A stretch of DNA of 64,000 nucleotides from Thermoplasmata archaeon (lineage in GTDB: Archaea; Thermoplasmatota; Thermoplasmata; Lutacidiplasmatales; UBA184), in assembly GCA_022749815.1 (NCBI GenBank), contig JAKIWV010000003.1, positions 158,048-222,047 on the forward strand, in the 5' to 3' direction. Numbering within the stretch: position 1 is the stretch's first letter; every line of letters starts with the position of its first letter. The notes below the pieces were generated by a model. It worked only from the letters and a program-made list of their open reading frames with translations. It did no database searches and was not told the DNA's origin. This document shows, one piece after another, positions 1,157 to 50,696 of the stretch. Made by a program: the position numbers and the translations under genes.

Positions 1157-2590
1157 CTACAGAGTTTCGTCGTCGGATTTCCTTGACGAGCGGCGCTCGG
1201 AGCGGCGGTGGAAGAGTCCTCTGGATTTCCGTACAGCCGGGCGGGGTCGCCCTCGGGCTCGGGCGGACGGGGCACGTTTCCTGGTCAACGGGTGAGGGTG
1301 GCCGCTCGGGTGCCTGCGGGGGGAGGGGGGTTCTTCCTCCGGCTCCTGCGGGGCCGCGAGCCAGGCGCGAAGACCTTTCCAGCGGCTCCCTTTGGGGCGC
1401 TCTCGCCATTCGGGTCCGTCGTCGTCCTCTTCGGCCTCTTCGTCCTCCTCATCGGCCTCCGCCCGCTCCTCGGCTAGGCGGCGAGGATCCTCGATGCCCT
1501 CGACCCGGAACAGGTAGTGGAGACCGAGGCCGGCGAGGACGATGGCAGAGAGCGTCAACGCCAGGAACTGCCAGGATTGGGGAGGCACCTGCACCGCGTT
1601 GCCGTCGACGAGGAGCTTGAACGAGCCCACCCACGGGAGCATCCCGCGGGCCGCCCCCACGACCCAGTCTCCCATGACCAGGGCCGAGATGCCCGAGACC
1701 TGGTCGATCTCGCCCTGGGCCGGAGTGCCGGAAACGACGTTGTTGTCCCCCATCGTGATGAACCCGGAGTAATGGCTCAGCCCTCCGAGGGGGATGGACA
1801 CGGACGCGTCCTGCCATCCCACGTGGAACAGGGTGACCGTGCTGAGAATGCCCTGGGAGTTGGTGGACAGGCAGCCGTTCCCGGTTCCGGCCACGGAGTA
1901 GAGGGCGTTCGGGGCCGACCCGCACGGGAGCCCGAAGAGCGCCGGCGCGGAAAAGTCCCGGTTCGTCGCATTCCAGAATAGGAACAGGACGGCCCGATGG
2001 ATTACGGGCGTCACCGAAGAGTCGCCGTTGGGATGGTAGAGGAGGACGTCACCGTATTCGCCGTAGGTACTGTAGCCGGAGTGCTCGCCGGCCACGTACG
2101 GCACGATCGCCGAGGGATCGATCTTCTTCACCAGGACCAGGTCCCCCGTGTTGATGATCCCTACCACGTCGCCCGAACCGTGCTGCATGCTGCCGGATTC
2201 CACCACGAAGATCGGGGGCCAGTTCGAGGTATAGGCAAAGAGAGAGACGAGCAGTAGCACGATGATCGCCAAGGCGACCAGCGGCTCGAAGTACCAACTG
2301 TCCCGCGCCCGGAAGAAGACCGGCCGGCGGAGAAAGCGCATGAACCGCTGAACTCCGCCGCCATACTCTTTCTGATCCCTTTCCACGGCCGCCAGGTCGT
2401 CCTCCTCGTCATCGAGGTCGGAAACGGTCCACGGTCGCACCGCGCCTCGGCCGCGGGACCGGCGGCTCCGCGCCGCCCGCCGTCGGGGCGGGGGAGGCGC
2501 TTCCACCTCCTCTTCCTCGTCGTCGAGTTCGTCCTCGTCGAGGTCGGGGTCCTCGGCGTCCGTGTCGGTCGACCCTCCCCTTCGAACCAT
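1157..2590 (-). CDS. signal peptidase I (S26B/Sec11-like) with acidic N- and C-terminal extensions
   Basis: Catalytic box IFVVESGSMQHG after a TM helix; second TM near the C-terminus; poly-D/E tracts at both ends; start uncertain. Confidence 0.7.
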   Translation of the reverse strand: MVRRGGSTDTDAEDPDLDEDELDDEEEEVEAPPPPRRRAARSRRSRGRGAVRPWTVSDLDDEEDDLAAVERDQKEYGGGVQRFMRFLRRPVFFRARDSWYFEPLVALAIIVLLLVSLFAYTSNWPPIFVVESGSMQHGSGDVVGIINTGDLVLVKKIDPSAIVPYVAGEHSGYSTYGEYGDVLLYHPNGDSSVTPVIHRAVLFLFWNATNRDFSAPALFGLPCGSAPNALYSVAGTGNGCLSTNSQGILSTVTLFHVGWQDASVSIPLGGLSHYSGFITMGDNNVVSGTPAQGEIDQVSGISALVMGDWVVGAARGMLPWVGSFKLLVDGNAVQVPPQSWQFLALTLSAIVLAGLGLHYLFRVEGIEDPRRLAEERAEADEEDEEAEEDDDGPEWRERPKGSRWKGLRAWLAAPQEPEEEPPSPRRHPSGHPHPLTRKRAPSARARGRPRPAVRKSRGLFHRRSERRSSRKSDDETL

Positions 2591-5948: not shown

Positions 5949-6325
5949 CAAGCAGCCGTCAGGAGCTCCGCGAGAGGCTTCGAGCCCTTGGCCTCGACGG
6001 CCAAGTTGACCTGAACCGTGTCCTCGCTGATGGTGTTCCCCCGGAAGGTGCGTCGCTTCCGCATGCCGCGGCGCGGCGCGTGGAACCCAAGTCCGTCCCC
6101 CACCAGCACCCGCATTTGACGCGCGCCCGGAAGATCCGGCCGGAGGGGAAAGCCGCTCTTGTCGGTCCCGCCCGTGATCTTCAACGTGTAGCCGGGCAGT
6201 CCGAGGGCATCTCCCCCGACCGTTTCCCCGATGCGCCGGCCCAAGAGAGCGGAGACCTGCGCGTCCGCAATGGTGCGGGCGTACGATTTCTCCTTCTCGG
6301 AAATCACGGCTTTGAACTCGACCAT
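5948..6325 (-). CDS. rps6e: 30S ribosomal protein S6e
   Basis: ITGGTDKSGFPLRPDLPG ... MRKRRTFRGNTIS; its stop overlaps the aIF2-gamma start (ATGA). Confidence 0.9.
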   Translation of the reverse strand: MVEFKAVISEKEKSYARTIADAQVSALLGRRIGETVGGDALGLPGYTLKITGGTDKSGFPLRPDLPGARQMRVLVGDGLGFHAPRRGMRKRRTFRGNTISEDTVQVNLAVEAKGSKPLAELLTAA

Positions 6326-8854: not shown

Positions 8855-9439
8855 ATGTCACTCTCCACAGACGTGTACGTCCTCAGCCTTGTAGGGGTGG
8901 GGATCGTCGCGTACTTCCTGTACGCTTCGTTCGCGTTCGGGGCAGGATATCAGCCGACGCCGGCCCGGGTCGTCCGACGGATGCTCGAACTCGCGGCCAT
9001 CGGCCCGCGCGATGCAGTGTACGACCTCGGGGCCGGGACCGGGGCCATCGTGTTCGCCGCGGCCCGAACGTACGGCGCGCGTGTGGTCGGGGTGGAAGTG
9101 GAACCGCTTCGAGTGCTGATCCTCCGTCTCCGTCTCTGGTGGGGGGGACCCCGGGACCGGATCACCATCGTCTGGGGGAGCATCTTCAAGGTCGACCTTC
9201 ATTCGGCGCAGGTCGTAGCGGTCTTCCTCTGGCCGGGCGCGATGGCGCGGCTCAAGGCGATGCTTGAGAACCAACTTCCGGCCGGCGCCCGAGTGGTGAG
9301 CCATTGGCACAAGGTGCCGGGCTGGACGGCCGAGGTGGTCGACCCGGAACTGAGAGTGTACTTTTACCGGTGGCCGGCGGCGCGCGTCGATGCCGGTGGG
9401 ACTACGGGTGAAAGTGGAACCAGAGCGCCGCGCCAATAG
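8855..9439 (+). CDS. membrane-anchored class I SAM-dependent methyltransferase
   Basis: N-terminal TM helix, then motif I VYDLGAGTGAIVFAAA and the acidic post-I VGVEVE. Confidence 0.55.
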   Translation: MSLSTDVYVLSLVGVGIVAYFLYASFAFGAGYQPTPARVVRRMLELAAIGPRDAVYDLGAGTGAIVFAAARTYGARVVGVEVEPLRVLILRLRLWWGGPRDRITIVWGSIFKVDLHSAQVVAVFLWPGAMARLKAMLENQLPAGARVVSHWHKVPGWTAEVVDPELRVYFYRWPAARVDAGGTTGESGTRAPRQ

Positions 9440-9548
9440 CCAGTACGACGAGAATGATGAGGAATCCCGAGATCCAGCCCTTGTAGAGAGTCCAGATTCC
9501 GTCGCTCGTCGCACCGCCGGGTCTCGACTGGACTGCAGTTGCGGTCAT
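9402..9548 (-). CDS. small (48 aa) single-TM protein
   Basis: MTATAVQ...IWTLYKGWISGFLIILVVLAIGAALWFHFHP; rich in I/F/W/Y, which is unusual for chance ORFs in this GC context; ATGA-coupled to the upstream small ORF. Confidence 0.35.
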   Translation of the reverse strand: MTATAVQSRPGGATSDGIWTLYKGWISGFLIILVVLAIGAALWFHFHP

Positions 9549-9775
9549 GCCGGTTTCTCTGGGTGACGACGCGCCCCCACCCCGAGGACGAGTCCCCCTA
9601 TCGGCGAGAAGAGGAGTCCGCCCTTCGGGGGGCTCGAGCCCGGGATCCCGGCCCCCAGGTGTCCCGTGACCCCCAAGTACGCGATCAACGCCCCGACAGC
9701 CACCGCGGTGATAATGGCCACGAGGAAGAAGAGCCACGGCAAGGGCGGAGGCTCGCTGTGCGCGGGAGGGCCCAT
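9545..9775 (-). CDS. small (76 aa) single-TM protein with glycine-zipper-like tail
   Basis: MGPPAHSEPPPLPWLFFLVAIITAVAVGALIAYLGVTGHLGAGIPG...; start taken at Met53 of a longer ORF. Confidence 0.35.
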   Translation of the reverse strand: MGPPAHSEPPPLPWLFFLVAIITAVAVGALIAYLGVTGHLGAGIPGSSPPKGGLLFSPIGGLVLGVGARRHPEKPA

Positions 9776-9915
9776 GGGTGAGCCGGTCATCCGGGCCGCC
9801 GTTTTTCCGCTCGACGTACGAGTTTTCGCGGCTCTGGGGGCAGCGAAGGCGAGCCGAAGAGGGACGGTCCGCGCCAGTCCACAAGCTTCAAACCCTGACG
9901 TCTTTCCCCACCTCC

Positions 9916-10659
9916 GTGGCCACCCAGGCATTCCAGCGGTATTTCGCCGAGTTCCTGGGAACTTTCGGACTGCTCCTGATCGGAGTGGGCACCGCCGAGC
10001 TGACCCTGAACGGCTTCGCGTTCAGTGAACGATACCTCGCGATATCGTTCGCTTTCGGCATCGTCGTGATGGCCGGTGCGTTCGCCTTCGGCGAGCTCTC
10101 CGGAGCCCACTTCAACCCGGCGGTCACGCTCTCGATGGCCGTTGCAGGCAAGATGCCGAAGGCCGACATTCTTCCTTACCTGATCGCCCAGCTCTTGGGG
10201 GCACTGCTCGGAGTGGAACTGGTCCTCGCGATCGCCCAAGGCACCTCCGGCGGGCTCCTCGCGGCGGTCCAGTCCAACGCATTGACGTCGCAAGGCTACG
10301 CGGGCAACGGGGCGCCGGCGGGTTTCGCAACCTCCCTGGGATCGGTCTTTCTCCTCGAGGTGGTGCTGACCTTTTTCTTCGTCCTCGTGATCCATCGCGT
10401 GACCCGCGACGGGAATCCGGCGAGAGCCCTCGCCCCGATCGCGATCGGCTTCACGCTGTTCCTGACGCAGCTCGTGGCGATTCCGATCGACAATGCGTCG
10501 ATCAATCCGTACCGCAGCCTGGCGCCGGCGTTGGTCGCCCAGGTGTGGCCCTCCGCGCACTGGGCGATCCTCGAAGTCTGGCTTTTCATCGTGGCGCCCA
10601 TCGTCGGGGGCCTCTTGGCGGCCGGCGTCGACTATATCCTGACGCCGCCCAAGAACTGA
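9916..10659 (+). CDS. aquaporin / MIP-family channel
   Basis: SGAHFNPAVT first NPA box; second box reads SINPYRSLAPA (NPY rather than NPA); about 248 aa from an in-frame GTG (the ORF is open back to 9778). Confidence 0.8.
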   Translation: MATQAFQRYFAEFLGTFGLLLIGVGTAELTLNGFAFSERYLAISFAFGIVVMAGAFAFGELSGAHFNPAVTLSMAVAGKMPKADILPYLIAQLLGALLGVELVLAIAQGTSGGLLAAVQSNALTSQGYAGNGAPAGFATSLGSVFLLEVVLTFFFVLVIHRVTRDGNPARALAPIAIGFTLFLTQLVAIPIDNASINPYRSLAPALVAQVWPSAHWAILEVWLFIVAPIVGGLLAAGVDYILTPPKN

Positions 10660-39267: not shown

Positions 39268-39377
39268 GGGCCTGTAGCTTAGCCGGGACAAAGCACTGGC
39301 CTTCTAAGCCAGCGAACTCGGGTTCAAAGGTCGGGGGGAAGTGACCTTCCCCCCGACGGAAACTCCCGACAGGCCCG
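39268..39377 (+). tRNA. tRNA-Arg (anticodon TCT) with ~35-nt intron inserted in the T-loop (non-canonical position ~59/60)
   Basis: Acceptor GGGCCTG/CAGGCCC, U8A9, D-arm GCTT-AGCCGGGACA-AAGC, anticodon arm CTGGC-CTTCTAA-GCCAG, V-loop CGAAC, T-stem TCGGG...CCCGA with T-loop TTCAAAG interrupted by a 12-bp GC hairpin plus GGAAACT. Confidence 0.55.
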
Positions 39378-50231: not shown

Positions 50232-50696
50232 ATGAAATGGGTTACTCGGGAAAAGGCGCGAGTGGACCGCATCGCTTGTCCTTGGCTCATACGAAAATTC
50301 ATCGATCCGAAGGCCGAGTTCCTCTATGTTGCAAAGGACATGGTGTTGAAGGTCGCCCAATCGGAAGGCGCCATCCCCTTCGACACGCCGGGAGCTGAAC
50401 TCCACCATTACCAGGACGGTGGAATCGAGTACGTCAGCTTCGATTCGATGATCCGGAAGTACAGGCTCTCCGACCCGGCTCTGCTGGAACTGGCCAAGAT
50501 CGTTCGGGTCGCCGATGGTGGGTCCGGCGAGGTGGCCGAAGCGGCGGGACTCGAAGCCGCCGCGACGGGATTCCGCATGATGGCAAAGGACGATTTTGAG
50601 AACCAGAAGCTCCAATTCCCTCTGTACGACGCCCTCTACATGTACTGCAAGTGGAAGGTCGAAAAGGGTGGAAAACTCGAACACTCCGGCGGCTGA
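50232..50696 (+). CDS. ChrB-like chromate-resistance domain protein (PF09828)
   Basis: MKWVTREKARVDRIACPWLIRKFIDPKAEFLYV. Confidence 0.55.
   Translation: MKWVTREKARVDRIACPWLIRKFIDPKAEFLYVAKDMVLKVAQSEGAIPFDTPGAELHHYQDGGIEYVSFDSMIRKYRLSDPALLELAKIVRVADGGSGEVAEAAGLEAAATGFRMMAKDDFENQKLQFPLYDALYMYCKWKVEKGGKLEHSGG

Follow-up and report, generated by a model that had tools for sequence, protein, structure and literature searches.

What, if anything, is encoded by two very short open reading frames (ORFs) that lie back to back on the minus strand in a 64-kb stretch of Thermoplasmata archaeon DNA (contig JAKIWV010000003.1; the whole stretch of 64,000 nucleotides (nt) is called the window below)? ORF A, of 76 amino acids (aa), and ORF B, of 48 aa, are located between a gene for a class-I methyltransferase and a divergent gene of the MIP/aquaporin family (Table 1). 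Judged by their conservation, both are genes, and profile alignments indicate homology between A and the membrane anchor that is part of SoxE-type blue copper proteins, which are encoded at the orthologous locus in sister lineages. Our reading, to which we give a probability of about 0.6, is that A and B represent a conserved membrane module of two genes, an anchor and a small partner, in a version without the cupredoxin domain that was likely derived by domain loss.

Since open frames were common in the window, which had a GC content of 67.3% (45 ORFs of at least 30 aa overlapped a 4-kb stretch), ORF length alone was uninformative. The preliminary description of this DNA had noted two minus-strand ORFs of 76 and 48 aa with an ATGA overlap and one strongly hydrophobic helix each, and the sequence agreed with this. 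For both A and B, the peak 19-residue mean Kyte-Doolittle hydropathy was 2.64. Among the 243 window ORFs of 40-100 aa, none reached this value and only one reached 2.4. The only other short ORF near A and B in hydrophobicity was an 89-aa ORF at 1208..1477 on the plus strand, with a hydrophobic C-terminal stretch (Kyte-Doolittle 2.45) and a GC content at third codon positions of 0.80. An enrichment in Ile, Phe, Trp and Tyr had been described for both ORFs. It was clear for B, in which these residues made up 25%, above all 243 window ORFs, but only moderate for A, whose share of 13% was unremarkable, being equalled or exceeded by 11.5% of the 243 ORFs.

The ORFs had also been thought to be missed by annotation. 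This was the case for B, whereas A is present in GenBank as MCI4353148.1 (L3K14_07165), a hypothetical protein of 81 aa started at the upstream ATG at 9790. Close homologues of A (n = 19, 55-84% identity) all came from Thermoplasmata metagenome-assembled genomes or from soil/peat metagenomes. In their alignment the five residues ahead of the 76-aa start were unconserved and absent from several relatives, and the Met at position 9775 was nearly invariant. Position 9775, giving 76 aa, was thus the consistent start, and these alignments suggest that the GenBank start was probably miscalled by five codons.

The A and B pair was found in 10/10 related Thermoplasmata loci that were fetched, with the stop/start overlap in the form NTGA throughout. 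No frameshifts or stops were found in the 11 loci (the window and the 10 relatives), in 20 A proteins or in 27 B proteins. Selection was measured over these 11 sequences as the mean pairwise Nei-Gojobori ratio of nonsynonymous to synonymous differences per site (pN/pS). For A, pN/pS was 0.44 overall, 0.25 for residues 10-50 and 0.69 for the tail residues 51-76. For B, it was 0.39 for residues 18-48, 0.43 for residues 18-36, which lie outside the overlap with the methyltransferase gene, and 0.73 for the N-terminal residues 1-17. In the two shifted frames of A the ratio was 1.07 and 1.77, and B read in its five remaining frames gave 0.74-1.65. Synonymous divergence within the clade was high (pS approximately 0.5-0.6). 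As the ratios of the cores were low in the called frame despite this high pS, A and B are, on the evidence of the alignments, real genes under purifying selection and not chance ORFs. The neighbouring MeaB, methyltransferase, MIP and B12-domain genes had ratios of 0.08-0.20, so that selection on A and B was weaker than on the neighbouring enzymes; it was focused in the transmembrane (TM) and juxtamembrane cores. The preliminary description had set a lack of conservation together with a lack of purifying selection against the pair, and the opposite was found on both counts.

ORF B was exactly 48 codons long in 11/11 sequences and had the conserved core W-[DE]-L-Y-K-G-W-x2-G-x2-I-x4-L-x6-W-x-H-x-H-P. 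An invariant interfacial motif, W-x-L-Y-K-G-W, and a G24xxxG28 motif were located ahead of the TM helix. In the C-terminal His-x-His-Pro, H47 was invariant among the 11 sequences, and the distant variants all kept a His there or adjacent to it (HYHG, FHH, KYH, HHP). The exact sequence of B was not found in a collection of 15 billion proteins, and a single-sequence search of a set of 5.8 billion proteins gave no match. A profile built from the 11 sequences recovered 27 database proteins, nearly all of 48 aa and all named 'hypothetical'. Sequence searches of Pfam, NCBIfam, PADLOC and PDB with A and B gave nothing significant.

The family profile of A gave 50 matches among 1.84 billion representative proteins. 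Only the first ~50 residues of A were widely conserved among these matches; the conserved portion comprised an N-terminus rich in Pro, the TM helix and a motif, YLGxTGxxGxGIPG. This module occurred in four settings: in peptides of ~43 aa ending exactly at ...GIP, in proteins of 59-99 aa with assorted short tails, at the N-terminus of five longer proteins (184-224 aa) with a sulfocyanin-type (SoxE) C-terminal domain, and in one 122-aa protein, P0074, resembling an in-frame fusion of A and B. The five SoxE-type proteins (P0060, P0064, P0076, P0078 and P0094) scored 23-34 bits against the SoxE model PF06525, the cut-off being 21, and the Copper-bind model also matched. The 184-224-aa relatives had the copper-ligand pattern HS[WF]V...C-E-[VM]-x-[GD]-H-x4-M, and the nearest solved structures to their C-terminal part were type-1 copper domains, those of nitrite reductase and auracyanin.

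The N-terminal 50 residues of A matched the SoxE-domain proteins with profile E values of 1e-8 to 4e-4 in the search of 1.84 billion sequences, and A residues 1-50 aligned with the anchors of these relatives; an outward orientation would follow from that of known blue copper proteins. When the cupredoxin proteins were compared with the window by tblastn, they matched only the anchor region of A (E 3e-8 to 3e-6), and no cupredoxin-like sequence was found anywhere in the 64 kb. The loci of four SoxE-type proteins were viewed. Three of the four genes lay between MIP and methyltransferase-MeaB-B12, which is the position of A, and the fourth was on a 1.4-kb contig that was too short to show its neighbours. 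In all four, a B-like ORF followed the SoxE-type gene. Together, the alignments and the shared position indicate homology between A and the anchor of the SoxE-type proteins, a conclusion that is independent of the direction in which the domain changed.

The difference between A and the sulfocyanin/SoxE proteins (PF06525) lies in what follows the anchor. A Pfam scan of ORF A found no family at E <= 0.1, the SoxE domain included. The type-1 copper ligands Cys and Met are not present in A, which has no Cys at all and no Met except the start residue. Because it has neither a cupredoxin domain nor these ligands, A cannot itself carry electrons. In the alignment, the tail of A sits where the relatives have the cupredoxin domain. 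It consists of a linker of Ser, Pro and Gly, a hydrophobic stretch rich in Gly (with G53, P58 and G61 conserved) and a basic end. An archaeosortase-type C-terminal signal (PGF-CTERM etc.) was considered for this tail, but a scan of A with NCBIfam (E <= 10) gave only an unrelated 12.8-bit match. AlphaFold2, using 21 homologues, predicted one confident helix in A at residues 13-37 (76-aa numbering) and had low confidence elsewhere; a conserved small-xxx-small face on this helix was formed by A24, G28, A32 and G35. The 43-aa peptides of other soil Thermoplasmata (P0067, P0071 and P0092 among them) were like A in their Pro-rich N-terminus, their TM helix and the pattern YxGxxGxxGxxIP, and they shared the locus with A, with a B-like ORF downstream. 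In contrast to A, they stop at ...GIP, whereas A of the window has a further 29-residue tail and a 4-nt overlap with B.

A B-like gene followed A in nearly every variant, namely in the forms of 43, 68, 76, 87 and 93 aa and in the cupredoxin forms. When the B profile was scored on 783 and 156 six-frame segments, B-like ORFs directly downstream of the A-like gene were detected in L020 (E 3e-17), L016 (4e-15), L014 (1e-13), L013 (1e-11), L022 (8e-11), L017 (3e-8), L024 (7e-8), L019 (1e-7) and L023 (3e-7), the L numbers denoting loci. Four B-like ORFs had not been called by the source annotation (L014 5133..5313, L015 282..460, L023 1784..1927 and L024 1244..1387); these follow 43-aa or 68-aa A-like genes and apparently have no ATG start.

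Among the 11 clade members the overlap between A and B was ATGA in 5, GTGA in 4 and CTGA in 2, and it recurred in L020; in other lineages the two genes were separated by a gap of 2-144 nt. Several relatives had AGGAG or GGGAG in the place of the AGAGAAA of the window, a stretch that may serve as a Shine-Dalgarno sequence for B. The conserved same-strand overlap of stop and start is what a coupled bicistronic operon would show at the sequence level, and A and B are very probably transcribed and translated together. The overlap could also be a site of programmed -1 frameshifting, by which an A-B fusion protein mimicking P0074 would be made. P0074 is a single 122-aa ORF at the same locus in L012 (123..491), with a B-like C-terminal helix ending in HHPI, and is convergent with the same methyltransferase gene. 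CTG at the overlap in two clade members and the linker-like character of the A tail and the B N-terminus would suit a fusion. However, the junction sequences contained no conserved slippery heptamer before the overlap, and 9/11 loci had ATG or GTG with a preceding purine-rich stretch. Where the overlap has CTG, a GTG in the same frame is close by (in L002 it lies 3 codons upstream, in L005 5 codons downstream), and the 2-144 nt between A and B in other lineages also speak against frameshifting, which we regard as very improbable.

The direction of the domain change was evaluated on a neighbour-joining tree (500 bootstraps) of 615 aligned residues from three flanking proteins, built without an outgroup. 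The 76-aa clade was recovered with 100% bootstrap support. Its sister was the cupredoxin-bearing L013, with 100% support without L020 and 86% with it. The next branch was L020, which has the 87-aa form (100%), followed by the cupredoxin-bearing L017 and L019, and L011 and L014 were the most distant. The cupredoxin bearers were never monophyletic. The tails of the separate cupredoxin-less lineages were unrelated, being Gly-rich and hydrophobic in the clade of the window, Pro/Ala-rich in L020 and lacking in the 43-aa forms, which fits independent truncations. Residual similarity between the A tail and the cupredoxin gene of L013 was looked for and not found. Since the copper domains are homologous and at the same site, which makes a double gain unlikely, and since the tails are unrelated, the sequences moderately favour repeated loss of the cupredoxin domain over its gain.

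A and B might instead be decaying leftovers of a deleted blue-copper operon, open by chance or recency and without function. The cupredoxin domain is gone, the A tail (0.69) and the B N-terminus (0.73) are nearly neutral, and the cores of A and B are less constrained than the neighbouring enzymes, all of which would be expected of relics. Against this, more than 40 sequences had intact frames at near-saturated synonymous divergence (pS 0.5-0.6). B was fixed at 48 codons, core pN/pS was 0.25 and 0.39, and the overlap and the Shine-Dalgarno-like stretch were conserved. Furthermore, forms without the cupredoxin domain have persisted in several separate lineages, and B has been kept with them. We consider functionless leftovers improbable.

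A toxin-like pair had been proposed in the preliminary description, that is, a small hydrophobic toxin with its partner, either resembling a type-I toxin/antitoxin system or depolarising the membrane. The size and hydrophobicity of A and B are like those of small membrane toxins. The best named family for B was the Ecr small membrane protein family NF033861, with a weak, non-significant similarity (E 0.57, 10 bits vs a cut-off of 33). It was the only named family that scored, and both are small single-pass membrane peptides, the similarity being one of TM-helix composition. The proposal was not supported by the genomic setting. The pair has a fixed chromosomal position, maintained over deep divergence, with conserved synteny in a non-mobile context, its variants track the tree of the flanking housekeeping genes, no match was found in PADLOC, Pfam or NCBIfam, and the window holds no paralogues. 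As the homology of A is to the anchor of a respiratory copper protein, a toxin pair seems extremely improbable.

The loci had a common layout, in which the A-like gene was convergent with methyltransferase-MeaB-methylmalonyl-CoA mutase B12 subunit wherever the contig sufficed and mostly also divergent from MIP. The methyltransferase gene adjoined every variant locus whose contig extended far enough downstream of B. The divergent MIP/A arrangement was found in the 76-aa clade and in L013, L017, L018, L019, L022, L023 and L024, with 140 nt between A and MIP in the window. This intergenic region contained the element AAAAYTCGTAC-N8/9-GAAAA in 11/11 clade loci. The element holds the palindrome CGTACG, its exact match was unique in the window, and one site with 1 mismatch was found at 50672..50682. 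It is probably a promoter, with A-rich boxes resembling BRE (transcription factor B recognition element) and TATA amid GC-rich DNA, or the site of a regulator.

A and B had been suggested to regulate the adjacent aquaporin. As accessory or regulatory subunits they would gate or stabilise the channel and be co-regulated with it through the 140-nt region, and both the maintained gene order in the 76-aa clade and seven other loci and the conserved element within the shared region accord with this. The order of the genes is weakly informative, as colinearity extends over 10 kb or more in all these genomes. The suggestion did not hold across the relatives, in which the MIP gene was missing from L009 and several more distant lineages. 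In L009 (VFSW01022133.1, 955..1240), MIP, which elsewhere stands between an FKBP-type gene and A, has shrunk to a 47-aa remnant, and A and B are intact and conserved. The upstream neighbour in the L011, L014/L015 and L020/L021 lineages is the FKBP-type gene, with no adjacent MIP, so that obligatory co-occurrence does not apply at these loci. The homology of A also points to a copper-protein anchor and not to a known MIP partner. A role as aquaporin subunits is thus quite improbable.

Under the reading of A and B as a cupredoxin-less anchor and partner, the cupredoxin domain was most likely deleted in this clade, with a weakly constrained tail of 26-29 residues in its place. The ATGA overlap, with the Shine-Dalgarno-like stretch in the 3' end of A, would have brought A and B into tight coupling. 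The two proteins most likely pair in the membrane as a small heteromeric module, and both would insert N-in/C-out. For A, this topology is suggested by the cupredoxin forms, in which the domain follows GIPG, so that YLGxTGHLGAGIPG would be on the outside of the membrane; blue copper proteins of respiration are established to face the cell exterior. For B, it is predicted from the Arg and Lys before the helix and the HFHP after it, which would put His-x-His on the same face. The helices may pack through small-xxx-small faces, A24/G28/A32 in A and the invariant G24/G28 in B, which is typical of TM helices that pack tightly in pairs. TGHLGAGIPG of A and WFHFHP of B would then lie at the outer face, where the relatives display the copper domain.

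In these relatives, the module would tether an electron carrier of the blue copper type and perhaps assist in its docking or metallation. The bare module may provide the respiratory electron-transfer system that the copper protein serves with a membrane platform or a docking subunit, and three outward histidines, H39 of A and H45 and H47 of B, may bind metal. A further idea, which we hold tentatively and regard as unlikely, is that the conserved unit is the two-peptide module of the A anchor and B and not the copper domain. Soil Thermoplasmata would keep it with or without cupredoxin cargo, and it could act on its own as an extracytoplasmic site for copper/metal binding or hand-over or as a docking subunit; in the domain-less clade a histidine in the outer loop of A (TGHLG) would have been fixed beside the C-terminal HxH of B. 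Small single-pass accessory subunits of membrane complexes are known, including CydX of cytochrome bd, CcoQ of cbb3 oxidase and KdpF of the Kdp ATPase. A and B are like them in general character (40-80 aa, one TM helix, probably co-transcribed, lineage-restricted and often missed by annotation), but differ in having no sequence similarity to them (Pfam, NCBIfam and PDB) and no large-complex genes alongside.

Several observations weigh against this reading. L011 was the only variant locus found without B; it has a 52-aa A-like gene ending in ...GAGIP (6001..6290) and no recognisable B in the 124 nt that separate it from the convergent methyltransferase gene. P0074, the one natural form that looks like a fusion of A and B, lies on a 776-bp contig, where an assembly error is possible, and its B-like part did not match the B profile significantly (E 0.33). 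Folded alone, it gave three helices at low confidence, with a predicted local distance difference test score (pLDDT) of 60, which is weak support. Parsimony on the same outgroup-free tree required 3 losses vs 2 gains of the cupredoxin domain. As to metal binding, His39 of A was unconserved outside this clade and H45 of B was swapped for Y, K or M in some distant variants. The locus is not beside genes for respiratory complexes, so that it is the anchor homology by itself that points to a docking-subunit role.

The features of the locus are collected in Table 1. The last 38 nt of ORF B overlap the 3' tail of the methyltransferase ORF, which is unconserved. The methyltransferase itself was best matched by the model NF041081 (archaeal protein-lysine N-methyltransferase) with 80 bits, under the cut-off of 200, and its final ~20 codons were unconserved. 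Rfam gave no RNA family in the A/B region. A scan for sigma-70 promoters and intrinsic terminators gave nothing useful, these models not being applicable to archaea.

Table 1. Coordinates of ORFs A and B, their parts and the flanking features in the window
Feature	Position	Strand	Remarks
ORF A	9545..9775	-	ATG 9775..9773, TGA 9547..9545; 76 aa; span includes stop codon
TM helix of ORF A, residues 13-37	9665..9739	-	Kyte-Doolittle 2.64; AlphaFold2 helix with pLDDT >90
Most conserved motif of ORF A, YLGVTGHLGAGIPGS, residues 33-47	9635..9679	-	Also in 43-aa stand-alone peptides and SoxE-type anchors
Weakly constrained tail of ORF A, residues 48-76	9548..9634	-	pN/pS 0.69 (residues 51-76); low pLDDT
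ATGA, overlap of A stop and B start	9545..9548	-	NTGA in all 11 clade members
Purine-rich Shine-Dalgarno-like AGAGAAA	9554..9560	-	6-12 nt ahead of B ATG, inside the last codons of A
ORF B	9402..9548	-	ATG 9548..9546, TAG 9404..9402; 48 aa; span includes stop codon; unannotated here
TM helix of ORF B, residues 26-44	9417..9473	-	Kyte-Doolittle, alignment
C-terminal His-x-His-Pro (HFHP) of ORF B	9405..9416	-	Alignment
Conserved element AAAAYTCGTAC-N8/9-GAAAA	9801..9826	-	26-51 nt ahead of A ATG; 11-locus alignment
Class-I methyltransferase with N-terminal TM segment	8855..9439	+	Convergent with the pair; outside the pair
MIP/aquaporin	9916..10659	+	PF00230, E 5e-43, match from ~9925; probable GTG start 9916; divergent; outside the pair

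Elsewhere in the window, a tRNA-Arg(UCU)-like gene was observed at 39268..~39379 on the plus strand. Rfam matched only 39268..39326, with the T-arm missing from the match. The T-loop is broken after TTCAAA by a GC-rich hairpin of ~33 nt (GGTCGGGGGGAAGTGACCTTCCCCCCGACGG), which is followed by the 3' T-stem and the acceptor strand (CTCCCGA CAGGCCC). From its sequence, this hairpin resembles an intron inserted at a T-loop site that is not canonical. With ARAGORN, the window as a whole gave no tRNA.

With these results the genome gains a real, unannotated 48-aa gene, B, and a probable correction of the start of its 76-aa neighbour A. Both genes are also given a context, that of a conserved two-gene membrane module of acid-soil Thermoplasmata which in some lineages carries a blue copper domain. 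The genomes with these loci probably belong to the high-GC acid-soil Thermoplasmata. Such archaea have been described as respiring aerobically, with blue copper proteins alongside complex IV (PMC9287336, PMC9038741). The forms found at one locus (cupredoxin, 93, 87, 76, 68 and 43 aa and a possible fusion) constitute a natural experiment on the loss or gain of a domain, in which the part of a membrane-anchored redox protein that persists is the anchor together with a small partner. If the two-peptide module is indeed the conserved unit, one subfamily of the blue copper proteins of archaea would have in B an obligate partner that had gone unrecognised, and if B does partner these copper proteins, models of electron transfer in uncultured Thermoplasmata that use blue copper proteins would have to include it.

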